NCBI RefSeq assembly: GCF_041886205.1
Contig: NZ_CP169029.1
Direction: 5' to 3' (one strand)
Origin: Escherichia coli
Lineage (GTDB): Bacteria > Pseudomonadota > Gammaproteobacteria > Enterobacterales > Enterobacteriaceae
DNA length: 64,000 bases
Shown: piece after piece, positions 7,404-59,893 of the stretch
How the letters are laid out: each line of letters opens with the position of its first letter
Position numbering within the stretch: the stretch's first letter is position 1
Notes under the pieces: generated by a model
Seen by the model: the letters and a program-made list of their open reading frames with translations, nothing else
Told to the model about the DNA's origin: nothing
The model's database searches: none
Program-made: the position numbers and the translations under genes

Positions 7404-7405
7404 AA

Positions 7406-8500: not shown

Positions 8501-8524
8501 CCTAAAATATTGTAAAGGTCATTC

Positions 8525-9739: not shown

Positions 9740-9758
9740 TATATTCAAGAGGTATATA

Positions 9759-10877: not shown

Positions 10878-10879
10878 TG

Positions 10880-11845: not shown

Positions 11846-11847
11846 TA

Positions 11848-13787: not shown

Positions 13788-13790
13788 CAT

Positions 13791-22278: not shown

Positions 22279-22279
22279 A

Positions 22280-27475
<5,196 letters not shown>

Positions 27476-40052: not shown

Positions 40053-40437
40053 CTTTAATCCGTTTTCTGAGCTTAGATTTTTCTGTTCCTACCCAGACCG
40101 TGGATTTGGAATTCATTTTTTGTCAGGTCAATGCTAATCGTTAAAACGGCCATAACGCACCTCCACTGGAAGGTTTATCAGTAATATCCTACCGTTGCTT
40201 CATGGTCGGGGCGTCCATTCCATTATTATCGGTTTTCCTTTCTGTTTATAAATGAAAACGCCAGCTGTATTCAGGCTGGCGTCAGGGGAAATGAAGCCTG
40301 TTGAGTGAGATTCACCGGTTCTGGTGCAGAAGCTGCAGATGGCGCAGGGTAAGGACATCTTCTCTTGCCTGCTTAATACAGGACAACAGTGCTGTTTCTG
40401 TGGTTAATGGTACTATACCCTGCATCACTGCATTGTC

Positions 40438-40632
40438 TTACAGCAACTGGTGAGGGCTGGCATAAGTTGCCGGTGTTTCGGTAGAGTCACGGTCATCCAC
40501 CACGCGGAGTGAATAACCTTTTTCAGCGGCCTTATTAATCAGTTCAGTGATATTAACACCATCAATGTCAACGACAATGTGCCCCATATCCAGCGCCTGT
40601 ACGTTAACGCTGTCGGCTTCCAGTGTCATCAT
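40438..40632 (-). CDS. hypothetical 64-aa protein
   Basis: ATG preceded by a strong Shine-Dalgarno (ggaggcgaaatgatg on the coding strand); compositionally typical coding sequence; function unknown to me. Confidence 0.45.
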   Translation of the reverse strand: MMTLEADSVNVQALDMGHIVVDIDGVNITELINKAAEKGYSLRVVDDRDSTETPATYASPHQLL

Positions 40633-40749
40633 TTCGCCTCCGGATACTTACCCAGGGTAATGTTATTTACCGTTCTGTAATTGTCGCGGGTCATCAGGCC
40701 GGTCGCCCTGCGAGCCCGGAGGATATCGATGCTGTTTATTAACTGAGAG

Positions 40750-41459
40750 CGGGTATGGGCGCTGCTTCGCAGACAGGCAGAACTTGATGGTATGCCTGCG
40801 ATCAATGCCAAACGTGTTTACCGGATCATGCGCCAGAATGCGCTGTTGCTTGAGCGAAAACCTGCTGTACCGCCATCGAAACGGGCACATACAGGCAGAG
40901 TGGCCGTGAAAGAAAGCAATCAGCGATGGTGCTCTGACGGGTTCGAGTTCTGCTGTGATAACGGAGAGAGACTGCGTGTCACGTTCGCGCTGGACTGCTG
41001 TGATCGTGAGGCACTGCACTGGGCGGTCACTACCGGCGGCTTCAACAGTGAAACAGTACAGGACGTCATGCTGGGAGCGGTGGAACGCCGCTTCGGCAAC
41101 GATCTTCCGTCGTCTCCAGTGGAGTGGCTGACGGATAATGGTTCATGCTACCGGGCTAATGAAACACGCCAGTTCGCCCGGATGTTGGGACTTGAACCGA
41201 AGAACACGGCGGTGCGGAGTCCGGAGAGTAACGGAATAGCAGAGAGCTTCGTGAAAACGATAAAGCGTGACTACATCAGTATCATGCCCAAACCAGACGG
41301 GTTAACGGCAGCAAAGAACCTTGCAGAGGCGTTCGAGCATTATAACGAATGGCATCCGCATAGTGCGCTGGGTTATCGCTCGCCACGGGAATATCTGCGG
41401 CAGCGGGCTTGTAATGGGTTAAGTGATAACAGATGTCTGGAAATATAGGGGCAAATCCA
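40750..41459 (+). mobile_element. insD: truncated IS2 (3' about 710 bp: C-terminal 218 codons of InsD/OrfB plus right terminal repeat)
   Basis: ORF 40792..41448 translates to the IS2 OrfB C-terminus ([53 protein letters not shown]...); upstream in-frame [14 protein letters not shown] is preceded by a stop; IS2 end ...ggggcaaatcca at about 41459. Confidence 0.9.
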
Positions 41460-41792
41460 GCCACGAATGCGGATTTGTTTACGGCCTGCCAAGGAGTTGT
41501 CTGTTATCTCTACTCCGGGGATGTCCTGCAAATTATCGGCTATGGAGGCATTGGTGGAGTTCTGCAATGTTTGTTGGTCAATAACCTGTATAGTCGCCGG
41601 GCTTTCCCAAAGGTTGCTTGCCGAACGATTCGTGGTCACGACGAGCGTCTCTTCGTTGCTGATTTTTGTTTCTGAAGAAGTTGCGGTTGCAGTAGAAACT
41701 ATCCCAGAAATGCATAATGACAGAGTGGAAAGGATATAAATTCGACAAGGTATATTATATAACATTTCATCCCTCATTAATACAAAGTACAA
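41460..41792 (-). pseudogene. yoeA: N-terminal fragment of a TonB-dependent outer-membrane receptor gene, truncated by IS2 (yoeA-like)
   Basis: ORF 41373..41792 minus begins with a signal peptide and plug-domain motifs (ETLVVTTNRSASNLWESPATIQVIDQQTLQ ... DNLQDIPGVEITDNSLAGRKQIRIRG) and then runs into the IS2 end. Confidence 0.75.
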
Positions 41793-41968
41793 ATGATTGC
41801 TGTAATGATAATTATTTTCATTTATGTTCTCATATATCTATAATTATTGTCATCTTCATAAATTGTAAATATCAAACATTTTTGACCTTAATCATGTTTT
41901 TTGATAGATATTTTACGACTGAACATATCCGTCGTTTCCTCTGACTCGTGTCAGTCGGTCTCTGGTTG

Positions 41969-42010
41969 TATCCACGGACCGCACTCTTGACATAAGAGTG
42001 CGGTCCGTGG
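41969..42010. repeat. 42-bp near-perfect palindrome (ccacggaccgcactctt gaca taagagtgcggtccgtgg)
   Basis: Read directly; 17-bp arms around a 4-nt loop, located just upstream of the yoeA-like fragment. Confidence 0.7.
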
Positions 42011-43436
42011 AAAACGGAGTTGAAAAAATGGTGTCTGAAAGAAGGTACCATCATTGTGATGACAAATACTTTGGCGTGGATAATGTAATTAATTGCTGAA
42101 ATTGACCGTATATGCGGTAAGACTCATATCAGTACCAGGTCCGGTTAATTGCTGATACTAATATAAACTTTTTACAAAAGGATGAATGCAGAAGGTTACT
42201 CTAATGGCCAGAGTGATGACAATGATGGTCAGACGTTGACCTGCAGAAACTGCATTTTAATTGGTCTATAAAGTCTGCAAGAGGAATCAGGGTCAGATCA
42301 GTGAGTCTTATCGCGGCCCGAAGCTATGACTGAAAGAAGGCTGGATACAGAATTGCAACAATTTGGCAATGTCAGAACACAGAAGCTTTGCAAGCAGGTG
42401 AAAGGTTATGTCTAGCAAAAGGAGTATATCAGAATATATCTACTGATGTACAAAACACAACAATAGCTTCATGATATATAAATACGTGATGACGAGTGGT
42501 ACTCCGCATGGTTATTTAACTTCTCAGCACCACTAATGATCCTGAGCAACTTCGTATTTGGGCCATTACCATGGAGTAGAAAGCTGTGTCTGAGAATGCA
42601 GAATTTGAGAAAAGAATTCGCTTTCTTGGAGAGCTTCTGAAAATGGCACGCTAACAACGTTTTGTTAAAAAATGTGAATCACTTGCCGGGGCTGCATTTT
42701 CTATTCGAGGAGAATGTTGACGTAGATATTACAGAAATCTCAGCGCATCAGGATAAACTGCTACCTTAGGTCAACCACCAAAAGAAAATACAATACGTCC
42801 AGTTTGTATGCCTTTAATAACACATCTTCTAAATGTTGAAGAATTATCCCGCCTGCTGAAGAACGTTGCTCTGAGTGTGATAAACCTTTTTATTCTTGAT
42901 GATGTCAGCGAGAAGATGGAATATATCCCCGACTGGGTCGTGGTTACCCGGTTAAACATCTGGTGGCGCTAATAAATCTGGCAAGTCACATTCTGTTGAA
43001 TGCTGTGACAGTGCCTTACCGAGAGAGCGAAATTGTGGTGTTCTAGTGCATAGTCGCCACCATTCCGGATAATTCTATTACGTTGTTTTACAAGTTCTTT
43101 TACAGCGCAGATCTGTCGCTGACGTTGAATCAATAGCCTGGATTTCAGAACACAATGCCCGTTTGCTGGTTGTTCCGGCAGTAGCATTAATTCATTATCT
43201 GAATGAAATGTGTCAATCCACAGAAACCGCTGTCAATGACGCATTTTGTCGGACGTTAACACGAGAAAGTCTGGCTATTCCGTAATGCCATCTTATTTCG
43301 TAATGGATTGAGAATGCTGGATTTTTAATTATATTACGCGCAGTATTAATCGCGTAAATGTTTTGCGGTCAGCAACGGTGGGGGATCCATTGTTCTGTTC
43401 AATGAATACCATCATACATTTGAATCAGGAGTCGGT

Positions 43437-43982
43437 ATGATGATTTTGGTGACGGGGGGCGCACGGAGCGGGAAGAGTCGCCACGCAGAGGCGCTTATTG
43501 GGGACTCTTCACAGGTTCTGTATATCGCTACCTCGCAAATCCTTGATGATGAGATGGCTGCACGGATAGAACATCATCGGCAAGGCCGCCCGGAGCACTG
43601 GCGCACAGTGGAGCGCTGGCAACATCTTGATGAATTAATTCATGCAGACATTAACCCGAATGAGGTTGTGTTGCTTGAATGCGTTACCACAATGGTGACT
43701 AATCTGTTGTTTGATTATGGCGGCGATAAAGACCCTGATGAATGGGATTATCAGGCGATGGAACAGGCGATTAATGCTGAGATTCAGTCGTTGATTGCTG
43801 CCTGCCAACGTTGCCCCGCAAAGGTTGTATTAGTGACTAACGAAGTGGGAATGGGGATTGTGCCGGAGAGTCGTCTGGCACGACATTTTCGTGATATTGC
43901 CGGGCGGGTAAATCAGCAGTTGGCCGCTGCGGCAAATGAAGTATGGCTGGTGGTTTCGGGTATTGGAGTAAAAATCAAATGA
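43437..43982 (+). CDS. cobU: adenosylcobinamide kinase / adenosylcobinamide-phosphate guanylyltransferase
   Basis: 181 aa; P-loop [18 protein letters not shown]. Confidence 0.95.
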
Positions 43983-44722
43983 GTAAATTATTTTGGGCGA
44001 TGCTCTCATTTATTACGCGTCTGCCTGTACCGCGTCGCTGGTCCCAGGGACTGGATTTCGAGCATTATTCTCGCGGTATTATTACTTTTCCTTTGATTGG
44101 ATTATTGCTTGGCGCGATTAGCGGGCTGGTCTTCATGGTGCTGCAGGCATGGTGTGGCGCACCACTGGCGGCACTGTTTAGCGTACTTGTGCTGGTGCTG
44201 ATGACCGGGGGATTCCATCTGGACGGCCTCGCTGATACCTGTGATGGCGTATTTTCTGCACGTAGCCGCGATCGCATGTTGGAAATCATGCGTGATAGCC
44301 GTTTAGGCACCCACGGCGGTCTGGCATTGATTTTTGTGGTACTGGCAAAGATTCTGGTGTTAAGCGAGTTGGCTCTGCGTGGCGAATCGATCCTTGCATC
44401 GCTGGCGGCAGCATGTGCGGTCAGCCGCGGGACTGCCGCATTATTGATGTATCGTCATCGTTATGCGCGGGAAGAAGGGCTTGGCAATGTGTTCATTGGC
44501 AAAATTGATGGGCGACAAACCTGCGTCACACTCGGCTTAGCCGCTATTTTTGCTGCCGTATTATTGCCGGGTATGCATGGTGTGGCTGCTATGGTGGTGA
44601 CGATGGTGGCGATTTTCATCCTCGGTCAGCTTCTCAAACGTACGCTGGGCGGGCAAACGGGCGATACGCTGGGAGCAGCCATAGAGCTTGGTGAACTGGT
44701 CTTCCTGCTGGCACTGCTATAA
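43979..44722 (+). CDS. cobS: adenosylcobinamide-GDP ribazoletransferase (cobalamin synthase)
   Basis: 247 aa from [18 protein letters not shown]; polytopic membrane protein; overlaps the cobU stop. Confidence 0.95.
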
Positions 44723-44733
44723 AGAGACGTGAG

Positions 44734-45813
44734 ATGCAAATACTTGCCGATTTACTGAATACGATCCCAGCCATCGATTCTACCGCTATGTCGCGTGCAC
44801 AACGGCATATTGACGGGTTACTCAAACCTGTTGGTAGCCTGGGAAAGCTGGAGGTGCTTGCCATACAACTGGCAGGAATGCCGGGGTTGAATGGCATACC
44901 GCATGTGGGCAAAAAAGCGGTACTGGTTATGTGTGCCGATCACGGCGTCTGGGAGGAAGGGGTCGCTATTTCTCCAAAAGAAGTGACAGCCATACAGGCT
45001 GAAAATATGACCCGTGGAACAACCGGCGTGTGTGTGCTGGCAGAACAAGCGGGCGCTAACGTCCACGTAATTGATGTTGGTATTGATACTGCTGAGCCTA
45101 TCCCCGGGCTTATCAACATGCATGTCGCACGAGGTAGCGGCAATATTGCTTCAGCTCCGGCAATGAGTCGCCGTCAGGCTGAAAAGTTGCTTTTGGACGT
45201 CATATGTTATACGCAGGAGCTGGCAAAAAACGGTGTCACGCTGTTTGGTGTAGGTGAACTGGGGATGGCAAACACGACACCGGCAGCAGCAATAGTCAGC
45301 ACAATCACTGGCCGGAATCCTGAAGAAGTGGTTGGGATTGGCGCAAACCTGCCGACAGATAAACTGGCTAATAAAATTGATGTTGTGCGTCGGGCGATTA
45401 CGTTGAATCAACCAAATCCTCAGGATGGTGTTGATGTCCTGGCAAAAGTGGGTGGATTTGATTTGGTCGGAATAGCTGGAGTGATGTTAGGTGCTGCTTC
45501 CTGCGGTTTACCCGTGTTGCTGGATGGATTTCTTTCTTATGCTGCTGCGCTCGCAGCCTGCCAGATGTCTCCTGCGATCAAACCGTATCTCATTCCTTCT
45601 CACCTGTCGGCAGAAAAAGGCGCGCGTATAGCGCTCTCGCATTTGGGGCTGGAGCCTTATCTCAATATGGAGATGCGTTTAGGTGAGGGGAGTGGCGCAG
45701 CTCTGGCGATGCCCATCATCGAAGCTGCCTGTGCGATATACAACAACATGGGCGAACTTGCTGCCAGTAATATTGTTCTACCGGGGAATACGACTTCTGA
45801 TTTGAACAGTTAA
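44734..45813 (+). CDS. cobT: nicotinate-nucleotide--dimethylbenzimidazole phosphoribosyltransferase
   Basis: 359 aa; [40 protein letters not shown]. Confidence 0.95.
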
Positions 45814-45877
45814 AAACGAAAAGTCTGATAAAAGCTATACTTAACGGATAGCTTTCGCGGCATAGGAAAGGGACATG

Positions 45878-46810
45878 ATGCGTCGTGTAAATATTCTTTG
45901 CTCATTTGCTCTGCTTTTTGCCAGCCATACTAGCCTGGCGGTAACTTATCCATTACCTCCAGAGGGTAGCCGTTTAGTGGGGCAGTCGTTTACTGTAACT
46001 GTTCCTGATCACAATACCCAGCCGCTGGAGACTTTTGCCGCACAATACGGGCAAGGGTTAAGTAACATGCTGGAAGCGAACCCGGGCGCTGATGTTTTTT
46101 TGCCGAAGTCTGGCTCGCAACTCACCATTCCGCAGCAACTGATTTTGCCCGACACTGTTCGTAAAGGGATTGTTGTTAACGTCGCTGAGATGCGTCTTTA
46201 TTACTACCCACCAGACAGTAATACTGTGGAAGTCTTTCCTATTGGTATCGGCCAGGCTGGGCGAGAAACCCCGCGTAACTGGGTGACTACCGTTGAACGT
46301 AAACAAGAAGCTCCAACCTGGACGCCAACGCCGAACACTCGGCGCGAATATGCGAAACGAGGGGAGAGTTTGCCCGCATTTGTTCCTGCGGGCCCCGATA
46401 ATCCCATGGGGCTGTACGCGATTTATATTGGCAGGTTGTATGCCATCCATGGTACCAATGCCAATTTTGGTATTGGGCTCCGGGTAAGTCAGGGCTGTAT
46501 TCGTCTGCGCAATGACGATATCAAATATCTGTTTGATAATGTTCCTGTTGGGACGCGTGTGCAAATTATCGACCAGCCAGTAAAATACACCACTGAACCA
46601 GATGGCTCGAACTGGCTGGAAGTTCATGAGCCGTTGTCGCGCAATCGTGCAGAATATGAGTCTGACCGAAAAGTGCCATTGCCGGTAACCCCATCTTTGC
46701 GGGCGTTTATCAACGGGCAAGAAGTTGATGTAAATCGCGCAAATGCTGCGTTGCAACGTCGATCGGGAATGCCTGTGCAAATTAGTTCTGGTTCAAGACA
46801 GATGTTTTAA
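45878..46810 (+). CDS. ldtA: L,D-transpeptidase (YkuD domain) ErfK/LdtA
   Basis: About 310 aa; signal peptide and catalytic motif ([24 protein letters not shown]). Confidence 0.9.
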
Positions 46811-46835
46811 GAGCGTTGGTAATTAGAAAGCAAAA

Positions 46836-46860
46836 AGCCTGCTAGAAAGCAGGCTTTTTT
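46836..46860 (+). terminator. rho-independent (likely bidirectional) terminator between erfK and tRNA-Asn
   Basis: Hairpin agcctgct agaa agcaggct flanked by an A run and a T run. Confidence 0.7.
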
Positions 46861-46865
46861 GAATT

Positions 46866-46941
46866 TGGCTCCTCTGACTGGACTCGAACCAGTGACATAC
46901 GGATTAACAGTCCGCCGTTCTACCGACTGAACTACAGAGGA
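46866..46941 (-). tRNA. asnV: tRNA-Asn (GUU anticodon)
   Basis: Reverse complement reads as the E. coli tRNA-Asn sequence (tcctctgtagttcagtcggtagaacggcggactgttaatccgtatgtcactggttcgagtccagtcagaggagcca); gene name assigned from position next to nac/erfK. Confidence 0.95.
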
Positions 46942-47267
46942 ATCGTGTGAACGGGGCGCATATTAATGGCAGTGCATGGTGATGTCAAAGGGTGAAATGC
47001 ATTTTTTTGTTTGTTTGCTGTCAATTTCAACAAAGTGGTGAGCTTTCAATCTTATTGGGTAATGAACCATCGTGGTGCATACCCTCCTTTTATAGGGCAG
47101 GGGAACGCGACAGCTGATTAAAGGAGCAAATGACGAATCTATCATAATCTCTTATTTGACAGTTGGTTAGCTTGTACATCAACACCAAAATAAAACTGGC
47201 AAGCATCTTGCAATCTGGTTGTAAGTAATGGCGGCACTTGGGCCGATTCTTAAAAACCGGAGGCAAC

Positions 47268-48185
47268 ATGAACTTCAGACGCCTGAAATACTTCGTAAAA
47301 ATTGTAGATATTGGTAGCCTGACCCAGGCTGCTGAAGTATTGCATATCGCACAACCAGCGCTCAGCCAGCAGGTTGCCACACTGGAAGGTGAGTTAAATC
47401 AACAACTTTTGATCCGTACAAAGCGGGGCGTTACACCAACAGACGCCGGAAAAATTCTCTATACCCATGCGCGGGCCATTTTACGTCAGTGTGAACAGGC
47501 CCAACTGGCGGTGCATAACGTTGGTCAGGCATTATCGGGGCAAGTCTCGATTGGCTTTGCACCAGGAACCGCTGCGTCATCCATCACCATGCCCTTATTA
47601 CAGGCGGTTCGCGCTGAATTTCCGGAGATCGTTATCTATCTTCATGAAAATAGTGGTGCAGTGCTTAACGAAAAATTGATAAATCACCAACTCGATATGG
47701 CGGTGATTTATGAGCATTCCCCTGTGGCTGGTGTATCCAGTCAGGCTTTGCTGAAAGAAGATCTTTTTCTGGTAGGAACTCAAGATTGCCCGGGGCAAAG
47801 CGTTGATGTGAATGCTATTGCGCAAATGAACCTCTTTCTCCCCAGTGATTACAGTGCTATTAGACTTCGTGTTGATGAGGCTTTTTCCCTACGGCGACTC
47901 ACGGCAAAAGTTATTGGTGAAATTGAGTCTATTGCCACGCTTACCGCAGCGATTGCCAGCGGCATGGGCGTTGCAGTATTACCCGAATCGGCCGCGCGTT
48001 CGTTATGTGGCGCAGTAAATGGGTGGATGTCACGCATTACCACTCCTTCCATGAGTCTCTCTTTGTCATTAAATTTACCCGCCAGAGCGAACTTATCGCC
48101 ACAGGCACAGGCAGTGAAAGAGTTGTTAATGTCAGTGATTAGTTCTCCAGTGATGGAAAAAAGGCAGTGGCAATTGGTGAGCTAA
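47268..48185 (+). CDS. nac: nitrogen assimilation control protein (LysR family)
   Basis: 305 aa from MNFRRLKYFVKIVDIGSLTQAAEVLHIAQPALSQQVATLE. Confidence 0.9.
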   Translation: MNFRRLKYFVKIVDIGSLTQAAEVLHIAQPALSQQVATLEGELNQQLLIRTKRGVTPTDAGKILYTHARAILRQCEQAQLAVHNVGQALSGQVSIGFAPGTAASSITMPLLQAVRAEFPEIVIYLHENSGAVLNEKLINHQLDMAVIYEHSPVAGVSSQALLKEDLFLVGTQDCPGQSVDVNAIAQMNLFLPSDYSAIRLRVDEAFSLRRLTAKVIGEIESIATLTAAIASGMGVAVLPESAARSLCGAVNGWMSRITTPSMSLSLSLNLPARANLSPQAQAVKELLMSVISSPVMEKRQWQLVS

Positions 48186-48286
48186 GTGTTATATCGGGAT
48201 GGAATAAGATGCGGGTTTTTATTATTTGTTATGCCGGGCATTAGACTTTAACAATAACGGGAAATCTGAACTGCCCGGAGTTTACC

Positions 48287-49237
48287 GTGAATTTCCAACA
48301 ACTAAAGATAATCCGCGAGGCTGCACGTCAGGATTACAACCTGACAGAGGTTGCGAATATGCTTTTTACCTCACAGTCAGGCGTCAGCCGTCATATTCGG
48401 GAACTGGAGGATGAACTTGGCATCGAAATATTTGTTCGACGAGGTAAGCGACTGCTGGGCATGACTGAACCGGGCAAAGCATTACTGGTCATTGCAGAAC
48501 GTATTCTGAATGAAGCCAGTAATGTTCGTCGGCTTGCAGACCTGTTTACCAACGATACGTCTGGCGTTCTCACTATTGCAACGACGCATACTCAGGCACG
48601 TTATAGCTTGCCAGAGGTCATTAAAGCTTTTCGCGAACTTTTCCCGGAGGTTCGGCTCGAGCTAATCCAGGGGACGCCACAGGAAATTGCGACATTGTTG
48701 CAAAATGGCGAAGCTGATATTGGTATCGCCAGCGAGCGTTTGAGTAATGACCCGCAGCTCGTCGCCTTCCCGTGGTTTCGTTGGCACCATAGTTTGCTTG
48801 TTCCACACGATCATCCCTTGACGCAAATTTCACCATTGACGCTGGAATCAATAGCGAAGTGGCCGTTAATCACTTACCGACAGGGGATTACGGGGCGCTC
48901 ACGTATTGATGACGCATTTGCCCGCAAAGGTTTGCTGGCAGATATTGTATTAAGTGCGCAGGATTCTGATGTCATTAAAACCTATGTTGCTCTTGGGCTT
49001 GGGATCGGATTAGTTGCCGAGCAATCCAGTGGCGAACAAGAGGAAGAGAATTTAATCCGCCTGGATACGCGGCATCTTTTTGATGCTAATACTGTCTGGT
49101 TGGGACTGAAGCGAGGACAACTTCAGCGTAACTATGTCTGGCGCTTTCTGGAACTTTGTAATGCAGGACTGTCAGTTGAGGATATCAAGCGGCAGGTGAT
49201 GGAAAGCAGTGAAGAGGGAATTGATTATCAGATATAG
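48287..49237 (+). CDS. cbl: CysB-like LysR-family regulator Cbl (sulfonate-sulfur utilisation)
   Basis: 316 aa; MNFQQLKIIREAARQDYNLTEVANMLFTSQSGVSRHIRELEDELGIEIF. Confidence 0.9.
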   Translation: MNFQQLKIIREAARQDYNLTEVANMLFTSQSGVSRHIRELEDELGIEIFVRRGKRLLGMTEPGKALLVIAERILNEASNVRRLADLFTNDTSGVLTIATTHTQARYSLPEVIKAFRELFPEVRLELIQGTPQEIATLLQNGEADIGIASERLSNDPQLVAFPWFRWHHSLLVPHDHPLTQISPLTLESIAKWPLITYRQGITGRSRIDDAFARKGLLADIVLSAQDSDVIKTYVALGLGIGLVAEQSSGEQEEENLIRLDTRHLFDANTVWLGLKRGQLQRNYVWRFLELCNAGLSVEDIKRQVMESSEEGIDYQI

Positions 49238-49242
49238 CAAAA

Positions 49243-49267
49243 ATCCCGCTATAAAAGCGGGCTTTTC
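49243..49267 (+). terminator. rho-independent terminator after cbl
   Basis: Hairpin cccgct ataaa agcggg followed by cttttc. Confidence 0.6.
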
Positions 49268-49274
49268 AGGAATT

Positions 49275-49350
49275 TGGCTCCTCTGACTGGACTCGAACCA
49301 GTGACATACGGATTAACAGTCCGCCGTTCTACCGACTGAACTACAGAGGA
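49275..49350 (-). tRNA. asnU: tRNA-Asn (GUU anticodon)
   Basis: Identical 76-nt tRNA-Asn sequence on the minus strand; name assigned from position between cbl and yeeO. Confidence 0.95.
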
Positions 49351-49510
49351 ATCGTTGTTGAGGCACATCTTAACGGCGAAAAATCTTTTGTCAAACCCGA
49401 TTTATAAATTCCCCTACTGTTTGCCGTTTCTATCAACAGTTTGTTGCATTTGCAGACAATTTGTTGGCGAAAATCTTTGCAGCTTTGCTGATTCTCCCTC
49501 ATTATTTGAA

Positions 49511-50998
49511 ATGTGGTTTCACTTTCTGCAATTAAGGTCGGCTTTGAATATCTCCTCTGCTTTACGCCAGGTTGTTCACGGCACTCGCTGGCACGCTAAA
49601 CGCAAGAGCTACAAAGTGTTGTTCTGGCGCGAGATAACCCCGCTTGCTGTTCCTATCTTCATGGAGAATGCCTGTGTCCTGTTGATGGGGGTTCTGAGCA
49701 CTTTTCTGGTCAGCTGGCTGGGAAAAGATGCGATGGCCGGCGTGGGATTGGCGGACAGCTTCAATATGGTCATTATGGCTTTTTTTGCTGCTATCGATCT
49801 TGGTACTACTGTCGTTGTGGCATTTAGTCTCGGTAAGCGGGATCGACGACGAGCGAGGGTGGCGACGCGGCAGTCATTGGTGATCATGACGTTGTTTGCC
49901 GTACTGTTGGCAACGCTTATTCATCATTTTGGCGAACAAATTATTGATTTCGTCGCGGGTGATGCCACGACAGAAGTTAAAGCACTGGCGTTGACTTATC
50001 TGGAGCTGACGGTACTCAGTTATCCAGCAGCTGCCATCACTCTTATTGGTAGCGGGGCACTTCGTGGTGCAGGGAATACGAAAATACCGCTATTGATTAA
50101 CGGTAGCCTGAATATTCTTAATATTATTATTAGCGGCATATTGATTTACGGCCTTTTCTCCTGGCCGGGACTGGAATTTGTCGGGGCAGGGCTGGGTTTA
50201 ACCATTTCTCGTTATATTGGCGCAGTTGCAATTTTGTGGGTGCTGGCGATTGGTTTTAATCCTGCGCTAAGGATTTCGTTAAAGAGCTATTTTAAACCGC
50301 TGAATTTTAGCATTATCTGGGAAGTCATGGGGATTGGTATTCCCGCGAGTGTCGAATCAGTGTTATTTACCAGTGGTCGGTTATTAACCCAAATGTTCGT
50401 TGCCGGGATGGGGACCAGTGTTATTGCCGGAAATTTTATCGCGTTTTCAATTGCGGCTCTTATCAACTTACCCGGAAGTGCGCTCGGCTCTGCTTCTACG
50501 ATCATTACAGGCCGAAGGTTGGGGGTAGGGCAGATAGCGCAAGCAGAGATTCAGTTGCGGCATGTGTTCTGGCTTTCCACTCTTGGATTAACGGCCATCG
50601 CCTGGCTAACGGCTCCCTTTGCCGGGGTTATGGCATCGTTTTACACCCAGGATCCACAGGTTAAACATGTCGTTGTGATTCTGATTTGGCTAAATGCTTT
50701 ATTTATGCCTATTTGGTCCGCCTCATGGGTGCTACCCGCTGGATTTAAAGGTGCTCGTGATGCCCGTTACGCCATGTGGGTTTCGATGTTGAGCATGTGG
50801 GGTTGTCGGGTTGTAGTCGGTTATGTGCTGGGAATCATGCTTGGCTGGGGTGTGGTTGGTGTCTGGATGGGAATGTTTGCCGACTGGGCTGTGCGGGCCG
50901 TGCTGTTTTACTGGCGAATGGTTACTGGACGTTGGCTATGGAAATACCCTCGACCCGAGCCGCAAAAGTGTGAAAAAAAGCCAGTTGTGTCGGAATAA
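49511..50998 (+). CDS. yeeO: MATE-family multidrug/flavin efflux transporter YeeO
   Basis: About 495 aa from MWFHFLQ; 12-TM MATE protein; the ORF-track start at 49355 abuts the tRNA and is rejected. Confidence 0.85.
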   Translation: MWFHFLQLRSALNISSALRQVVHGTRWHAKRKSYKVLFWREITPLAVPIFMENACVLLMGVLSTFLVSWLGKDAMAGVGLADSFNMVIMAFFAAIDLGTTVVVAFSLGKRDRRRARVATRQSLVIMTLFAVLLATLIHHFGEQIIDFVAGDATTEVKALALTYLELTVLSYPAAAITLIGSGALRGAGNTKIPLLINGSLNILNIIISGILIYGLFSWPGLEFVGAGLGLTISRYIGAVAILWVLAIGFNPALRISLKSYFKPLNFSIIWEVMGIGIPASVESVLFTSGRLLTQMFVAGMGTSVIAGNFIAFSIAALINLPGSALGSASTIITGRRLGVGQIAQAEIQLRHVFWLSTLGLTAIAWLTAPFAGVMASFYTQDPQVKHVVVILIWLNALFMPIWSASWVLPAGFKGARDARYAMWVSMLSMWGCRVVVGYVLGIMLGWGVVGVWMGMFADWAVRAVLFYWRMVTGRWLWKYPRPEPQKCEKKPVVSE

Positions 50999-51098
50999 AC
51001 GACAAAATGCAGATTATTTCAGCAAACGATTTCAAATTTAAAAAACAGGCTTTGACATTGTGGGTGGGCATCGCTAATATTCGCCTCGTTCTCACGAT

Positions 51099-51174
51099 TC
51101 CTCTGTAGTTCAGTCGGTAGAACGGCGGACTGTTAATCCGTATGTCACTGGTTCGAGTCCAGTCAGAGGAGCCA
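51099..51174 (+). tRNA. asnW: tRNA-Asn (GUU anticodon)
   Basis: Plus-strand tcctctgtagttcagtcggtagaacggcggactgttaatccgtatgtcactggttcgagtccagtcagaggagcca; followed by two hairpins (about 51181-51210 and 51237-51275). Confidence 0.95.
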
Positions 51175-51626
51175 AATTTTAGTTTTGAGACATCTCTATG
51201 AGTCTCAAAACAGTTAAAAAATAAAAATTATTTTTACCCGGTTACCTTGTAAAAAAGTGACCGGGTTTTTTGATTTCTGTGTTTCGTGCGCTTAATCGAG
51301 TCTCACGCTTCAGTGAGCAAATTGTCCCTCCCCAACAGACATCACGATTCGCAAGGTCAAAAACTCTGTTCCATGAAGTACCGTACAAAGATAAAGAGAA
51401 AAATGCCTTATGCGGGATGTCGCTATCGCGTCTTTATCGGGAAACTATGCGTAATTGCCACTTTGCCTTCTGTAATCAGAAAAAGAAGAACTGGAATTTT
51501 AATAAATATTATTTCTCTGGGAACGGGGGGGTATAATCAATATGACGAGTTGAATATTATATTTTTTATAAGAATTATATGAGATTAAAGAAATCTGCCG
51601 TAAAGACAGATTTCTTTAAAAGATAA

Positions 51627-52343
51627 TTAGAGATTTGCGACGTTATGATAAACTTTTTGTACATCGTCGTCATCTTCAAGGGCATCAACAAGCCCTTCAA
51701 AGATTTCTAAATCTTCTGGGGAAAGCTCAACTTCAGATTGAGCAATCATTTCTAATTCTGTTGTTGAGAACTCAGTGATTCCAGCTGCTTTTAGAGCCGC
51801 GATTCCTTTATGAAGGTCAGTAGGTTCAGTATAAATAACAATGTTACCTTCTTCTTCAGTCACATCACGAACATCAACTTCAGCTTCAAGTAAAATTTCA
51901 AAAATATGGTCAGGGTCTGTCCCTTTAAATACAATCACACCCGTATTGTCAAACATATAGCTGACAGAACCTGCCGCTCCGATATTGCCGCCTTTTTTAT
52001 TGAAAATTGTGCGAACGTTAGCAATCGTACGGTTAACATTTGAAGTCAATGTCTCGGCGATAATCATTGAGCCATTAGGACCAAAGCCTTCATAACGTCC
52101 CTGCACGAACGTTTCATCTCCGCCGCCTTTGGCTTTATCAATTGCTTTATCAATAACGTGCTTTGGAACTTGTGCCTGCTTTGCACGTTCAATAACGAAT
52201 TTTAAAGATGTGTTTAATTCTGGATCGGGTTCACCTTGTTTAGCAGCAGCATAGATTTCTACACCGAATTTTGCATAAATTTTAGACGTTGCACCGTCTT
52301 TAGCCGTTTTTTTAGCAACAATATTGGCCCATTTACGTCCCAC
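51627..52343 (-). CDS. yeeN: YebC/PmpR-family transcriptional regulator YeeN
   Basis: 238 aa; [42 protein letters not shown]. Confidence 0.9.
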
Positions 52344-52685
52344 TGGAATGATCTCCTCGAAAATTTATTTACATTACTGGTAAATCGTTAACATGTGTTA
52401 ATTCAGCATATTATATCATAACAGGAAAAATCTCGTCTATTAGAAATAAAAATATTCTAAAGCCATAATCTTATATTTAATTTTATAAAAACTTATATTG
52501 TTGGCGGGATTTTTTATAATTGTGTTTTGAAAGCATACTTGCTTTTAATATGTGGAAATCATTAAGACGATAATAAAACTCGTATCCGCCCAAGGAAGCA
52601 AACAGCCCACGATTATTGCAGGCTATTTGCCAGGTGTCTTACTTACTCCTTCACATCTATTTCTGATAAGAAGGTTCAGAACTTA

Positions 52686-54140
52686 TTATCGGAACGGCGG
52701 CTCATTAAAGGTTCGTAATTTACGCGAATGCAGTCGGTCGCCTTCTGCGCGCAGCAAATCGATCGCCCGAATGCCAATTTGCAGATGTTCGGAAATAGCG
52801 CCTTCATAAAAACGGTTAGCCTGGCCGGGAAGTTTAATCTCGCCATGCAACGGTTTATCTGAAACACACAGTAGTGTCCCGTATGGCACGCGGAAACGAT
52901 ATCCTTGCGCGGCAATGGTTGCACTTTCCATATCAATTGCTACGGCCCGGCTTAAGTTAAAACGAAGTGCAGAAGCTGAGTAACGTAATTCCCAGTTCCT
53001 GTCATCTGTGGTTACCACAGTACCAGTACGTAGCCGCTGTTTGACTTCCTCACCGGGCCTGCCGCTCACCAGCTTGGTGGCGTCATAAAGCGCACGTTGC
53101 ACTTCAGCAATGCTCGGAATAGGAATATCGGGCGGCAGAACCGCATCAAGAACGTGGTCATCGCGTAAATAAGCGTGTGCAAGTACATAATCGCCAATGG
53201 CCTGACTTTCACGTAATCCGCCACAGTGACCAATCATCAACCAGACATCCGGGCGTAGCACTGCCAGATGATCGCAGATGGTTTTAGCATTTGACGGTCC
53301 CACGCCAATATTCACCAGAGTAATACCCTGACCATCGGCGGTAATTAAATGCCATGCTGGCATCTGATGTTTTTTCCATGCAAGGTCGGAAATGGCTTCT
53401 TCTGGCGCTTCGGTTTCGGCGGTGATCCAGTTCCCGCCAGCACAAGAAAGGGCAATGTAGGGACTATCAGGATCGAGGATCTGGCTGCATCCCCAACGAA
53501 CGAATTCATCCACATAACGTGTGTAGTTGGTAAACAAGACGAACGGCTGAAAATGTTCAACTGGCGTACCGGTATAATGGCGCAACCGTGCGAGGGAAAA
53601 ATCGACGCGGCGCGCATCAAAATGCGATAGCGGGGAGAATTCAGTTGGATGATAAATGCCGTCTGCAGTTTCATCGCCAATTTGCGCCAGTTCTGTTGTC
53701 GGGAAGTAGCGAGTTAACCCAGCGCTCATTGAGCGATCAAGTGTCAATTCAGAGCCATCGATGACATAAGGATAAGGGATTTCATGCTGCGAGGGTTGCA
53801 CTGAGATATGCGCACCATAATCCTGATACAGCAACGTAAGTTGTTCATTAAGATACGAACGAAAGAGAGTAGGGCGAGTAATCGTGGTGGTGTAGCTGCC
53901 TGCGTGGGTAAAGCGACCAAATGCGCGCGTTTTGGGGGGATTGGTTGTGCTACCGTCCCAGGTTACGGTCAGTGATGGATAGACAAAAAGACCTTGTTTG
54001 CGGGCGTTTTCATCAGGTAATTCGCCACTTGTAATATAGTTGCCAATGGCGTTGCGTAATGCGACTACAGATTGCTCATACAGCGCGTCGAGTTTATCCA
54101 GTGCCTGAGCTGGGGTCAGGCCGGAGCCCTTATTATTCAT
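52686..54140 (-). CDS. amn: AMP nucleosidase
   Basis: 484 aa from MNNKGSGLTPAQALDKLDALYEQSVVALRNAIGNY; the longer ORF-track N-terminal extension is rejected. Confidence 0.95.
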   Translation of the reverse strand: MNNKGSGLTPAQALDKLDALYEQSVVALRNAIGNYITSGELPDENARKQGLFVYPSLTVTWDGSTTNPPKTRAFGRFTHAGSYTTTITRPTLFRSYLNEQLTLLYQDYGAHISVQPSQHEIPYPYVIDGSELTLDRSMSAGLTRYFPTTELAQIGDETADGIYHPTEFSPLSHFDARRVDFSLARLRHYTGTPVEHFQPFVLFTNYTRYVDEFVRWGCSQILDPDSPYIALSCAGGNWITAETEAPEEAISDLAWKKHQMPAWHLITADGQGITLVNIGVGPSNAKTICDHLAVLRPDVWLMIGHCGGLRESQAIGDYVLAHAYLRDDHVLDAVLPPDIPIPSIAEVQRALYDATKLVSGRPGEEVKQRLRTGTVVTTDDRNWELRYSASALRFNLSRAVAIDMESATIAAQGYRFRVPYGTLLCVSDKPLHGEIKLPGQANRFYEGAISEHLQIGIRAIDLLRAEGDRLHSRKLRTFNEPPFR

Positions 54141-54241
54141 GTGTGTCTCCTGTTCCATACAATTACCGCACATCCGATAGTATGTCACAGAAATGTGAAA
54201 CAAAAGTGTAAGGCGAAGATCGGATGATCTTCGCCAGGCTA

Positions 54242-55558
54242 TCAAGCGCGTTGACTGTCTTTCATCAACAAAGCGGTCATTGCGGAAATCAGGCATCCAG
54301 CCAGCAAATAAATGGCGACGCTATGCCAGTTCCCGGCAAAGTAAGTGATGAGTGCAGCGGCAATAAAAGGTGTAAATCCACCGCCAACCACACTGGCAAC
54401 CTGATAACCGACTCCAGCGCCACTATAGCGATAACTGGCACCAAACATTTCGGTAAACATCGGTTGTTGCACACACACCACCATGTCATGCGCAATGTTT
54501 GCCAGCATTATGGAGAAGAAAACTATCCAGAAAATAGATTGTGCTTCAAGCGCCATAAAGAAAGGAAATGCGCTCAACGTTCCGATTAACGTACCTGTGA
54601 TATAAACCCTACGGCGACCAAAACGATCGGCAAGCCAGGCAAAACAGGGAATTGTCAGGCAGCTTAATCCACCTACCAGCAAACCAATATTAAGGAAAAG
54701 TTCGCGCGGTAGCCCCATATTCTGGGTTGAATAATTAAGTGCAAAGGCAGTAACGATGTACATCGTCAGCAATTCGCACAGTCGTAGCGCAATAATCTTC
54801 AGGAAAGCACCGGGATGTCGTAACAGCGCTTCGATAACCGGGATGCGTTTTTTCGCGGCAGCTTGATAATGTTGCTGTTGTTCAAATTCCGCGGACTCCT
54901 CCATGCCATTGCGCACCCACAATGCTCCCAGTACCAGTACGATGCTAAACAGGAAAGGAATGCGCCAGCCCCAGCTTAAAAACTGTTCGTCAGTCGTCAT
55001 CATACTGATCAATGAAACCAGTCCGGTTGAAAGCAGTAAACCTACACCGTAGCCAACTTGTACACCGCTACTGTAAAAGGCTTTTTTATTTTTCGGTGCA
55101 CTTTCAACGGAAAGCAACGCCGCGCCTCCCCATTCGCCGCCGACTGCAAATCCCTGAATGGCACGCAGTGTCACCAGCAAAATAGGTGCCCACCACCCAA
55201 TGGTCGAGAATGAAGGAAGAATACCAATCAAGGCTGTCGCGATGCCCATCATCCAGACGGTCAGCATTAACATGCGCTTACGTCCCAGTCGGTCGCCAAA
55301 GTGACCGAAAATGACACCGCCGAGCGGACGGAAAAGAAATCCGACGCCAAAGGTAGCAAATGCGGCGAGCGTTCCCATCGCCGGGCTTACTTGCGGGAAA
55401 AACTCGCGATTAAACACCAGTGCGGCGGTGATGCCATAGAGTAAAAAATCATACCAGTCGACGACGGCACCAGCGAAGCTGCCTAACGCAGCTCGTCGGG
55501 CGCGACTTAACGAAAGCGTCCCTTCATCGGGACGAGTGGAGATGAGCGTGGAGTCCAT
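54242..55558 (-). CDS. shiA: shikimate:H+ symporter (MFS)
   Basis: 438 aa; MFS signature motifs (GHFGDRLGRKRML ... GWRIPFL); conserved position next to amn. Confidence 0.9.
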   Translation of the reverse strand: MDSTLISTRPDEGTLSLSRARRAALGSFAGAVVDWYDFLLYGITAALVFNREFFPQVSPAMGTLAAFATFGVGFLFRPLGGVIFGHFGDRLGRKRMLMLTVWMMGIATALIGILPSFSTIGWWAPILLVTLRAIQGFAVGGEWGGAALLSVESAPKNKKAFYSSGVQVGYGVGLLLSTGLVSLISMMTTDEQFLSWGWRIPFLFSIVLVLGALWVRNGMEESAEFEQQQHYQAAAKKRIPVIEALLRHPGAFLKIIALRLCELLTMYIVTAFALNYSTQNMGLPRELFLNIGLLVGGLSCLTIPCFAWLADRFGRRRVYITGTLIGTLSAFPFFMALEAQSIFWIVFFSIMLANIAHDMVVCVQQPMFTEMFGASYRYSGAGVGYQVASVVGGGFTPFIAAALITYFAGNWHSVAIYLLAGCLISAMTALLMKDSQRA

Positions 55559-55872
55559 AATGATCCTGTTTGTACTGTCTTTTTATAATTAGTATGGAAA
55601 AGGTAACTCACATTGCCGTCGATCTATAAACGAACCTTATGAGACTACCTCGACAGAGCGCATCTGCAAATGATTTTATGGCTGATTAGCGGCAACATGA
55701 AAAATTCGATGGAAGATGAAAGCGCAGGAGTTGCTGGTGTTGTTTAAGGATTAAGCAGAGGACCCACAGGTTAGAGATATGAAACATAAAAGTCCGCATA
55801 TGCACAAAATGGCACCCTGATGAGTCTGATAGACTGCATTGCATTATAACCAGTAGGGAGGCGAGGTTAGGT

Positions 55873-55945
55873 ATGTTTTTAGCATCATTGTTGAGACGTA
55901 TTGCATTTAGTTACTACGATTATAAAGCTTATAATTTCAATATTG
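55873..55945 (+). pseudogene. yeeL: 5' end of a family-9 (heptosyltransferase-like) glycosyltransferase gene, yeeL-like, interrupted by IS66 insertion
   Basis: ATG with SD gggagg; MFLASLLRRIAFSYYDYKAYNFNI is in frame, across the IS and its target duplication, with the ORF downstream of the IS. Confidence 0.65.
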
Positions 55946-55998
55946 GTAACCGGCTCATTTAAACCGTCTGGTCTGTTTCCTCCGGCTCTACAAAAATA

Positions 55999-56676
55999 AT
56001 GTCCATCATTTTTAATGGACACTATCGTATGAAACACCGGACCTGGATCACTGAAGCTTTACGTCTTCACTTTGAAGAACATTTACCCCGGGTTGTGGCC
56101 GGGCGTCGCCTGGGTGTACCAAAATCAACAGTTTGTAGTATGTTCGTGCGCTTTCGGAGAGCTGGCCTTTCGTGGCCTTTGCCCGCAGGCATGTCGGAGC
56201 AGGAACTTGATGCCTGCCTTTACGGACAATTTTCCACGGTACCAGTCGTACGTCCTGAAAGCACCGTTATATCCGAAGCCCCCGTGGTAAAAAAACGTCC
56301 CCGGCGGCCCAACTTCCCTTATGAGTTTAAAATCGCCTTAGTGGAGCAGTCACTGCAGCCCGGAGCCTGTGTGGCGCAGATCGCCCGGGAAAACGGAATC
56401 AACGATAACCTGCTCTTCAACTGGCGCCATCAATACCGGAAAGGTGGCCTGCTGCCTTCCGGAAAAAATATGCCGGCACTGCTTCCCGTGACGTTAACGC
56501 CGGAGCCGGATAATAAAATCCCGGCCCCCGCACAGGAACCAGAGCAGATAAATACACCGTCCGACAGTCTGTGTTGTGAGCTGGTTCTGCCGGCCGGAAC
56601 TCTCAGGCTTAAAGGTAAACTGACGCCGGCGTTATTACAGACACTTATCCGCGAAATAAAAGGGAGCAGCCACTGA
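55999..56676 (+). CDS. IS66-family accessory protein (orf1, HTH-containing); true start uncertain
   Basis: First ORF of the element; stop overlaps the start of orf2 (ATGA). Confidence 0.6.
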   Translation: MSIIFNGHYRMKHRTWITEALRLHFEEHLPRVVAGRRLGVPKSTVCSMFVRFRRAGLSWPLPAGMSEQELDACLYGQFSTVPVVRPESTVISEAPVVKKRPRRPNFPYEFKIALVEQSLQPGACVAQIARENGINDNLLFNWRHQYRKGGLLPSGKNMPALLPVTLTPEPDNKIPAPAQEPEQINTPSDSLCCELVLPAGTLRLKGKLTPALLQTLIREIKGSSH

Positions 56677-57023
56677 TGATATCTCTCCCTGCAGGTTCGC
56701 GTATCTGGCTGGTTGCAGGTATCACCGATATGCGAAATGGCTTTAACGGCCTGGCATCAAAAGTTCAGAACGTCCTGAAGGATGACCCGTTCTCCGGACA
56801 CCTGTTCATCTTCCGCGGACGCCGGGGTGACCAGATAAAAGTGTTGTGGGCTGACAGTGACGGACTGTGCCTCTTCACCAAACGCCTGGAGCGGGGCCGC
56901 TTCGTCTGGCCAGTCACCCGTGACGGCAAGGTGCACCTTACTCCGGCTCAGTTATCCATGCTTCTTGAAGGTATCAACTGGAAGCACCCGAAACGAACGG
57001 AACGCGCTGGAATCCGCATATAA
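56676..57023 (+). CDS. IS66-family Orf2 (TnpB-like)
   Basis: 115 aa; MISLPAGSRIWLVAGITDMRNGFNGLA, characteristic IS66 Orf2. Confidence 0.85.
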   Translation: MISLPAGSRIWLVAGITDMRNGFNGLASKVQNVLKDDPFSGHLFIFRGRRGDQIKVLWADSDGLCLFTKRLERGRFVWPVTRDGKVHLTPAQLSMLLEGINWKHPKRTERAGIRI

Positions 57024-57042
57024 CCCGTTGTAAAGTGAGGAT

Positions 57043-58614
57043 ATGGACACCTCACTTGCTCATGAGAACGCCCGCCTGCGGGCACTGTTGCAGACGCAAC
57101 AGGACACCATCCGCCAGATGGCTGAATACAACCGCCTGCTCTCACAGCGGGTGGCGGCTTATGCTTCCGAAATCAACCGGCTGAAGGCGCTGGTTGCGAA
57201 ACTGCAACGTATGCAGTTCGGTAAAAGCTCAGAAAAACTTCGTGCAAAAACCGAACGGCAGATACAGGAAGCACAGGAGCGAATCAGCGCACTTCAGGAA
57301 GAAATGGCGGAAACGCTGGGTGAGCAATATGACCCGGTACTGCCATCCGCCCTGCGCCAGTCTTCAGCCCGTAAACCGTTACCGGCCTCACTTCCCCGTG
57401 AAACCCGGGTTATCCGGCCGGAAGAGGAATGCTGTCCTGCCTGTGGTGGTGAACTCAGTTCTCTGGGATGTGATGTGTCAGAGCAACTGGAGCTTATCAG
57501 CAGCGCCTTTAAGGTTATCGAAACACAACGTCCGAAACAGGCCTGTTGCCGGTGCGACCATATCGTGCAGGCACCAGTACCTTCAAAACCCATTGCACGC
57601 AGTTATGCCGGAGCGGGGCTTCTGGCCCATGTTGTCACCGGGAAATATGCAGACCATCTGCCGTTATACCGCCAGTCAGAAATATACCGTCGTCAGGGAG
57701 TGGAGCTGAGCCGTGCCACACTGGGGCGCTGGACAGGTGCTGTTGCTGAACTGCTGGAGCCGCTGTATGACGTCCTGCGCCAGTATGTGCTGATGCCCGG
57801 TAAAGTCCATGCTGATGATATCCCCGTCCCGGTCCAGGAGCCGGGCAGCGGTAAAACCCGGACAGCCCGGCTGTGGGTCTACGTCCGTGATGACCGTAAC
57901 GCCGGTTCACAGATGCCCCCGGCGGTCTGGTTCGCGTACAGTCCGGACCGGAAAGGTATCCATCCACAAAATCACCTGGCCGGTTACAGCGGTGTGCTTC
58001 AGGCCGATGCTTACGGTGGTTACCGGGCGTTATACGAATCCGGCAGAATAACGGAAGCCGCGTGTATGGCTCATGCCCGGAGAAAAATCCACGATGTGCA
58101 TGCAAGAGCGTCCACCTACATCACCACGGAAGCCCTGCAGCGTATCGGTGAACTGTATGCCATCGAGGCAGAGGTCCGGGGCTGTTCAGCAGAACAGCGT
58201 CTGGCGGCAAGAAAAGCCAGAGCCGCGCCACTGATGCAGTCACTGTATGACTGGATACAGCAACAGATGAAAACACTGTCGCGTCACTCAGATACGGCAA
58301 AAGCGTTCGCATACCTGCTGAAACAGTGGGATGCACTGAACGTGTACTGCAGTAATGGCTGGGTGGAAATCGACAACAACATCGCAGAGAACGCCTTACG
58401 GGGAGTGGCCGTAGGCCGGAAAAACTGGATGTTCGCGGGTTCCGACAGCGGTGGTGAACATGCGGCGGTGTTGTACTCGCTGATCGGCACATGCCGTCTG
58501 AACAATGTGGAGCCAGAAAAGTGGCTGCGTTACGTCATTGAACATATCCAGGACTGGCCGGCAAACCGGGTACGCGATCTGTTGCCCTGGAAAGTTGATC
58601 TGAGCTCTCAGTAA
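57043..58614 (+). CDS. IS66-family transposase (TnpC)
   Basis: 523 aa; N-terminal leucine zipper, CxxC...CxxC zinc-binding motif (CCPACGG ... CCRCD), conserved DDE region. Confidence 0.9.
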
Positions 58615-58643
58615 ATATCAATACGGTTCTGACGAGTCGCTTA

Positions 58644-59284
58644 CCAATATTGAAAAAACAGACTTTGTTGTCATCCATATTCCCGATCAGATTGGCGATG
58701 CTATGGCCATCTTTCCTGTTATTCGGGCGCTTGAATTGCATAAAATTAAGCATCTTTTAATTGTAACGTCGACAATTAATTTAGAAGTCTTTAATGCGCT
58801 TAAACTTGAACAGACTAAATTAACATTAGTCACAATGACTATGCAGGATCACGCAACATTAAAAGAAATAAAAGATTTAGCAAAGAACATAACACAGCAA
58901 TACGGTACGCCGGATCTTTGCATTGAGGGGATGCGTAAAAAGAACCTGAAAACGATGTTATTTATCAGTCAGTTGAAAGCAAAAACGAATTTTCAGGTTG
59001 TTGGTATAACCATGAATTGCTTCTCCCCTTTGTGCAAGAACGCGTCCCGTATGGATCAGAAACTCCGGGCTCCCGTACCTATGACATGGGCATTTATGAT
59101 GCGTGAGGCGGGTTTTCCAGCAGTCAGGCCAATATATGAATTGCCACTAAGTGAGGATGTACTCGATGAGGTGCGCGAGGAAATGCGATCGTTAGGATCT
59201 TACATTGCGTTCAATTTAGAAGGTAGCTCGCAGGAACGTACATTTTCATTATCGATTGCAGAAAATCTAATAGCAAAAATTTAA
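58644..59284 (+). pseudogene. yeeL: yeeL-like glycosyltransferase-9 pseudogene, central part (resumes after the IS66 insertion)
   Basis: In-frame continuation ...NIEKTDFVVIHIPDQIGDAMAIFPVIRALEL..., reminiscent of heptosyltransferase N-terminal domain. Confidence 0.6.
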
Positions 59285-59305
59285 AGTGAAACAGATATAC
59301 CAATA

Positions 59306-59632
59306 GTGATCGTTCATGGACCCAAAGGTGAAGATAAAGCCAGGGCATTAGTGGATTGTTATAATAATGTCTACCGTTTATCCTTACCACCCTCGATTAA
59401 ACGTTCAGCAGCAATCATAAAAGATGCTTATATCGCAATAACTCCTGACACCTCAATATTACATATGGCAAGTGCCTATAATACCCCTGTTGTTGCAATT
59501 TATGCTGATTACAAAACGCGATGGCCCGCAATGGCCGATGTCTCGGAGTCAGTCGTCGTTGGGCAAAAAATTGACAATATAAGTCTGGATGAATTCGCAA
59601 AGGCATTAAAAAGTGTTTTGGCGAGAATATGA
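59306..59632 (+). pseudogene. yeeL: yeeL-like glycosyltransferase-9 pseudogene, C-terminal part (separated from the preceding part by stop/frameshift)
   Basis: C-terminal GT9 motif (ITPDTSILHMASAYNTPVVAIY); separate ORF 22 nt after the previous stop. Confidence 0.6.
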
Positions 59633-59893
59633 GACAGTACTTATGCATAGTAATGCCGATCTGTTATGAACGGTGGTGTCATCAATACTCTGAGGCTGGT
59701 CAATCATCACAGAAAACCAGCCTTTAGATCAAAGCAGTACTCACCGAAAATGATCATAGTCACATCGAACGCGATTCTGGCGGTGCCGCATTTTTATTTA
59801 TTCATTTTCTGTGAGAGAAGGGCTAGTTCTGTAGAGGGAATGTAAAAAAGAGTGCCCCGAATGGAACACTCTTTAAGAAATTATAACGGAAAA

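Follow-up and report, generated by a model that had tools for sequence, protein, structure and literature searches.

The locus described here lies in a 64,000-nucleotide stretch of Escherichia coli DNA (RefSeq contig NZ_CP169029.1), referred to below as the window. It consists of the gene yeeL, situated between shiA and yeeJ and interrupted close to its 5' end by an insertion sequence of the IS66 family, for which we adopt the name ISCro1 for reasons given below. The insertion falls after yeeL nucleotide 73, within the first 25 codons, and the same gene carries a nonsense codon further downstream. The features discussed are as follows, with coordinates counted from the first letter of the window:

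55873..55945, + strand: 5' fragment of yeeL, codons 1-24 and the first base of codon 25, with the ATG at 55873; 100% identical to K-12 yeeL
55938..55945, no strand: left copy of the 8-bp target-site duplication, CAATATTG, equal to yeeL nucleotides 66-73
55946..58644, + strand: ISCro1 (IS66 family), intact copy of 2,699 bp, oriented like yeeL, 100% identical to annotated copies
55946..55967, + strand: left terminal inverted repeat, GTAACCGGCTCATTTAAACCGT, matching the reverse-complemented right end at 16/22 positions
55999..56676, + strand: tnpA, 225-amino acid helix-turn-helix accessory protein (Pfam HTH_Tnp_1, 55 bits; NF038385 IS66_access_TnpA, 296 bits, cut-off 150)
56676..57023, + strand: tnpB, 115-amino acid accessory protein of the IS66 Orf2 type (Pfam TnpB_IS66, 136 bits; NF033819, 129 bits, cut-off 50)
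57043..58614, + strand: tnpC, 523-amino acid DDE transposase (NF033517 transpos_IS66, 478 bits, cut-off 180; Pfam IS66 domains)
58623..58644, - strand: right terminal inverted repeat, reverse complement GTAAGCGACTCGTCAGAACCGT
58645..58652, no strand: right copy of the 8-bp target-site duplication, CAATATTG
58653..59632, + strand: 3' part of yeeL, from the remainder of codon 25 to the TGA at 59630-59632, in frame after removal of 55946-58652
59282..59284, + strand: in-frame nonsense codon TAA at yeeL codon 235 (Q235*), where intact alleles have CAA (Gln)

Genes, ends and identity of the element

The gene order is tnpA-tnpB-tnpC; tnpB begins on the last base of the tnpA stop codon (TGATG at 56674-56678), and tnpC begins 19 nucleotides downstream of the tnpB stop. 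All three proteins score above the curated NCBIfam cut-offs for IS66. TnpC contains the Pfam domains LZ_Tnp_IS66, zf-IS66, DDE_Tnp_IS66 and DDE_Tnp_IS66_C, of which DDE_Tnp_IS66 (PF03050) covers profile positions 1-283 of 284 with a score of 344 bits. The terminal inverted repeats are imperfect, agreeing at 16 of 22 positions, and each end starts with GTAA, as is typical of the IS66 family. The element thus combines an IS66-type DDE domain, upstream accessory genes, GTAA-type repeats and an 8-bp target-site duplication, the last of which is a hallmark of the family (PMC6778807).

A first-pass annotation of this DNA, made from the letters and a list of open reading frames, had described an intact IS66-family element with three open reading frames, imperfect terminal repeats and a perfect 8-bp direct repeat on both flanks. 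Each of these points held up: the family assignment agrees with three curated NCBIfam models and the Pfam IS66 domains, the reading frames of 225, 115 and 523 codons are all full length, the repeats agree at the 16 positions noted above, and CAATATTG is found at both 55938-55945 and 58645-58652. The span that it gave, 55946-58643, was correct at the left end but one base short at the right, where the true end is 58644, because the flanking 8-mers would differ if the element ended at 58643. With the right end at 58644, re-inspection found the two 8-mers to be identical. The left junction reads TATAATTTCAATATTG / GTAACCGG and the right junction GAGTCGCTTAC / CAATATTGAAAAAAC, and the chance of an identical 8-mer on both flanks is ~1.5e-5 (4^-8). 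The same first and last element bases were found in 17 other full-length ISCro1-like copies located in the shiA-yeeJ interval of other genomes, each of which bears its own perfect 8-bp duplication.

Comparison of the element with 5,426 complete RefSeq E. coli genomes gave many copies, on chromosomes and on plasmids, that match it at 100% identity along its full 2,699 bp. In the NCBI annotation these identical copies carry the name 'IS66-like element ISCro1 family transposase', next to which tnpA and tnpB are also named, and by that annotation the element is identifiable as the catalogued ISCro1. ISCro1 was named from Citrobacter rodentium ICC168, which holds 24 copies (PMC3072379); in E. coli ST131 it is known from the afa promoter (PMC8764528). 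The genome search returned 10,926 chromosomal matches; copies covering at least 80% of the element were present in 1,492 of the 5,426 genomes, and a match of any extent in 3,017. Likewise, copies covering at least 80% of the element were found on 1,399 plasmids, while any match was found in 2,449 plasmid records, mostly from Escherichia, followed by Shigella, Salmonella and Klebsiella.

The intact reading frames and ends, together with the identical and widespread copies, suggest that this copy would be capable of autonomous transposition. IS66-family elements are often fragments, a tendency reflected in the drop from 3,017 genomes with any match to 1,492 in which at least 80% of the element is covered, and the copy might accordingly be a defective relic that is no longer mobile on its own. 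We regard this as extremely improbable, since no reading frame is shortened, all three proteins score above the curated cut-offs, neither terminal repeat is missing, and copies on many chromosomes and plasmids are 100% identical to this one, which implies that exactly this sequence was recently active.

The interrupted gene and its older nonsense codon

Removal of 55946-58652, that is, the element and one copy of the duplication, joins 55873-55945 to 58653-59632 in frame. After this excision in silico, the shiA-yeeL-yeeJ stretch differs from that of K-12 MG1655 by 1 mismatch in 3,208 bp, and the restored interval is identical at 1,628 of 1,628 positions to the uninterrupted loci of strains 510016, L73 and 2452. 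Since excision restores an uninterrupted locus, the insertion was precise. Orthology with K-12 yeeL is supported by this sequence identity and by position between the genes annotated shiA and yeeJ. A Glyco_transf_9 domain scores 30.2 bits in the C-terminal fragment of the window and 29.5 bits in an intact yeeL allele (Pfam cut-off 22), which makes yeeL a weak member of glycosyltransferase family 9. The equivalog models for heptosyltransferase I and II gave scores of 37.8 (cut-off 185) and 19.6 (cut-off 135), respectively; as these lie far below the cut-offs, yeeL is a distant member of that family rather than WaaC or WaaF. Taken together, these results agree with the earlier description of the target as a yeeL-like gene of glycosyltransferase family 9, whose frame becomes continuous, with the protein quoted at the time, once the element and one repeat copy are taken out.

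The restored gene is not open throughout. The TAA at codon 235 is also carried by K-12 yeeL, where the gene is flagged 'internal stop'. Among 17 other fetched loci with a readable site, codon 235 is TAA in 8 and CAA in 9, and it is CAA in a further locus, L021. An intact yeeL of 350 amino acids (WP_000477884.1, with CAA at codon 235) is annotated in this last locus, from strain JNEC-KY171 (L021 3328-4380). The CAA alleles in L021 and 9 other fetched loci show that yeeL is not a pseudogene across the whole species. The first-pass annotation had placed a separate downstream break in the gene, with a stop at 59284 and a restart at 59306, and had concluded that yeeL was probably already a pseudogene when the element arrived. 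The stop is indeed there; the 'restart', however, is merely the next GTG in the same frame. A frameshift as the second lesion is ruled out by the single in-frame C-to-T change that converts CAA to TAA. As for the order of events, the TAA is common to K-12 and 8 fetched loci that lack this insertion; since the nonsense allele is widespread and the insertion unique, the nonsense mutation came first, in agreement with the earlier conclusion.

Insertion sites in the shiA-yeeJ interval

We mapped insertion sites from fetched two-piece junction matches, together with a chimeric query that combined the flank with both possible element ends. In the shiA-yeeJ interval (window 55559-59893), ISCro1 or a close variant of it (95-100% identity) was inserted at 20 distinct sites (loci L002-L021 and the window), spanning K-12 locus coordinates 1233 to 2615 (1.4 kb), within which yeeL occupies 1436-2488. 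Insertions were evenly divided with respect to orientation (10 + and 10 -). An orientation bias was considered and rejected, as the first searches could detect copies in the same orientation only, and the even division emerged with the chimeric query. A perfect 8-bp duplication was present at 18 of the 20 sites, including that of the window, and the remaining two were readable on one side only. The window's exact site was found in no other genome, the nearest copies lying 11 bp upstream and 7 bp downstream, both in the opposite orientation.

Two of the fetched arrangements deserve separate description. In strain fS25a (L011 3408-7207), a truncated ISCro1 (element positions 1343-2699) abuts a second copy, either nested or in tandem; relative to the window's insertion, this pair is inverted and lies 7 bp further downstream. 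Strains B19374 and CUVET21-37 (L018 and L019, 3712-6410 in both), and probably also the strain behind hit H151, share one insertion position although their shiA and yeeJ alleles differ, and the duplications in L018 and L019 are one base apart (TGTTATTT vs TGATATTT). Either the insertion is old and shared by these strains, or the same site was used more than once.

If all 10,926 chromosomal matches were independent, 3.6 would be expected in the interval, compared to 21 genomes observed (Poisson 2.5e-10). As a control, the same design with the flank placed in the adjacent yeeJ returned no ISCro1 insertion in 1.5 kb, although yeeJ is itself often a pseudogene. The interval (1.6 kb) is an AT-rich island, with 35-46% GC in 300-bp windows compared to ~50% in the neighbouring genes, and the duplications are richer still in A and T, with a mean of 28% GC vs 40% for the interval (permutation p = 0.002). 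The duplications also display a weak NNWNNWNN pattern, to which that of the window conforms: position 3 is A or T at every one of the 20 sites and position 6 at 19 of them, and the two positions mirror each other about the centre of the 8-bp target. With a background of 0.36 for both positions together, this pattern has a binomial probability of 5e-8, a value that refers to one locus only and to positions picked after inspection of the data.

Other insertion sequences, namely IS1X2, IS1A, ISEc48, IS3 and ISKpn26, are likewise found in yeeL or its flanks in various strains (L008 8049-8746; L009 5641-6338; L012 6720-7189; L020 6880-7294; hits H244-H246), and in 407 of the 5,343 genomes that contain the interval no single place covers at least 80% of it. 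Separately, IS5 interrupts shiA in L004. The presence of IS1A, IS3, ISKpn26, IS1X2 and ISEc48 weakens the notion of a hotspot for ISCro1 alone and instead points to an interval that collects insertion sequences in general. Most simply, the interval is read as an AT-rich, dispensable locus to which insertion sequences are drawn and in which they are also tolerated, targeting and tolerance being inseparable on these data.

A stronger view is that the interval may be a true regional target of ISCro1, guided beyond mere tolerance by the two-fold symmetric NNWNNWNN preference, and perhaps also by local DNA structure or by nucleoid-protein coating of the AT-rich island. We put this forward tentatively, as a serious possibility that we stop just short of favoring; if it is true, the insertion in the window is one more strike on a landing pad. 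A literature search found no published description of ISCro1 targeting of the yeeL interval.

Origin of the insertion and comparison with known systems

Queries spanning either junction gave no contiguous match in the 5,426 genomes, and an exact 40-mer over the left junction was not found in metagenome contigs. Sharing of the insertion by other strains was considered and rejected, as every two-piece junction match proved to be an ISCro1 copy elsewhere in the interval. The comparison with other strains that had been suggested at the outset therefore places the junction in 0 of 5,426 genomes, marking the insertion as strain-specific in that set. A recent event, as had been proposed at first sight, is indicated both by the perfect duplication and by the existence of other copies that are 100% identical. 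We infer that the insertion is probably recent and specific to this strain lineage.

With regard to that lineage, the window has an O157-type O-antigen cluster (~3347-15161), whose best match among the genomes searched, at 98.8% identity, is to O157:H16 strains. The backbone at 40000-55945 is K-12-like, at 99.9% identity; over the matching region, the window is without the Ag43/YeeR-containing segment present in K-12. By these comparisons the window derives from an O157, non-H7 strain.

The mixture of an O157-type O-antigen cluster with a K-12-like backbone, and the proximity of the locus to the O-antigen/his segment, which often recombines, raise the question of whether the lineage acquired the interrupted yeeL allele in finished form, through homologous recombination with DNA of another strain. 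This is quite improbable: no donor with this junction occurs among the genomes searched, and the flanks are part of the K-12-like backbone that also makes up the 16 kb before them (99.9% identity). An imported allele would, moreover, still originate from the same transposition event.

An insertion of non-biological origin, through assembly misjoining or editing of the record, would be consistent with the absence of the exact junction from genomes and metagenome contigs alike, and the window does contain a 3.1-kb degraded non-coding stretch that replaces his genes between flanks that are 100% normal, so that the record is not free of irregularities throughout. Even so, we judge a misjoin or an edit to be very improbable. 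The joining of repeats would create no target duplication, whereas here the duplication is perfect and conforms to the NNWNNWNN pattern of the other sites, the element begins and ends exactly as do 17 independent full-length copies elsewhere, and natural empty sites match the flanks at 100% identity. The source strain is, in any case, outside the searched collection.

Taken together, these findings lead us to conclude with high confidence that one presumably autonomous copy of ISCro1 transposed into an already dead yeeL, after nucleotide 73 and in the same orientation as the gene. The target was cut with an 8-bp stagger, and gap repair duplicated CAATATTG; TnpC would have catalyzed the transposition with the assistance of TnpA and TnpB. 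The site fits the apparent local preference, in which the AT-rich and dispensable shiA-yeeJ interval would take up ISCro1 repeatedly at NNWNNWNN 8-mers. The insertion was presumably without functional cost because yeeL already carried Q235*, common to K-12 and many strains.

Several points weigh against this conclusion. The name ISCro1 comes from the NCBI annotation of identical copies, not from direct comparison with the ISfinder reference, and the activity of this copy is deduced from its intact reading frames and its identity to widespread copies. The source strain is outside the 5,426-genome set, so that 'strain-specific' means unseen in those genomes. Finally, the clearly abnormal sequence at 22276-25423 means that some artefact in the record is possible.

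The abnormal segment itself was characterized further. Its 3,148 bp replace 3,133 bp of native sequence, in which hisA, hisH and hisB are complete and hisF and hisC are represented by their 5' part and 3' end, respectively. Stops occur in all frames, and on both sides the segment is bordered by sequence 100% identical to normal E. coli. Its alignment to the native his genes is collinear, with ~58% identity and many 1-3 bp indels over most of the length and 71-81% identity over the last ~750 bp, whereas shuffled versions gave no alignment to the his genes. At the protein level, only weak similarity to HisB and HisC is left. Dinucleotide counts differ from those of the native segment (CG 151 vs 277; TG 294 vs 175). 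A simple shuffle of the native sequence was considered and rejected, as base and dinucleotide counts differ and the collinear alignment is kept. The segment looks like an artefact or an artificially degraded sequence, and we offer no natural explanation for it.

As to its significance, the insertion matters little: it is an ordinary event, in which a catalogued insertion sequence entered a gene already dead in the K-12 lineage, and for that reason no phenotype is expected. The junction provides a unique marker of this strain lineage. For annotation, both yeeL fragments and the internal stop belong merged as a single pseudogene. The A/T-rich 8-mer sites in the yeeL interval are of modest value for work on target choice in the IS66 family, on which, to our knowledge, there has been very little experimental work.

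Both ISCro1 and the K-12-type yeeL pseudogene were already known. K-12 yeeL has the same internal stop as the window and is 1 base in 3,208 apart after excision; unlike the window, it has no insertion sequence. The three-gene layout and 8-bp duplication of ISCro1 are the same as in the window's element, and only the insertion site is new. In strain EC958, ISCro1 is given as 2,824 bp in the ST131 paper (PMC8764528), compared to the 2,699 bp bounded here by target duplications.

Within the family, IS679, a close relative, is an experimentally studied element from E. coli plasmid pB171 (PMC6778807). It has an ISfinder entry separate from that of ISCro1, with C. rodentium listed with both, and a copy annotated as IS679 (H135) matched the terminal 800-bp stretches of the window's element at 97.8% identity over 76% of the query. 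Han and colleagues reportedly described in 2001 an IS679 with the tnpA-tnpB-tnpC organization, GTAA-type ends and 8-bp duplication also seen in the window, and are said to have found that its transposition required all three genes. ISEc8, an IS66-family element of E. coli O157:H7, shares the family and gene order of the window's element; its 85-89% identity is confined to alignable parts, making it a distinct element.

The closest parallel to the interval itself is the region upstream of afaA in E. coli ST131, which holds ISCro1, IS1 and another insertion sequence and was termed a 'hotspot' by its authors (PMC8764528). The shiA-yeeJ interval likewise holds several, namely ISCro1, IS1, IS3, ISKpn26 and ISEc48. 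In contrast to the afa hotspot, where insertions occur at one position and alter adhesin expression, those in the yeeL interval are spread over 1.4 kb of a dispensable gene.

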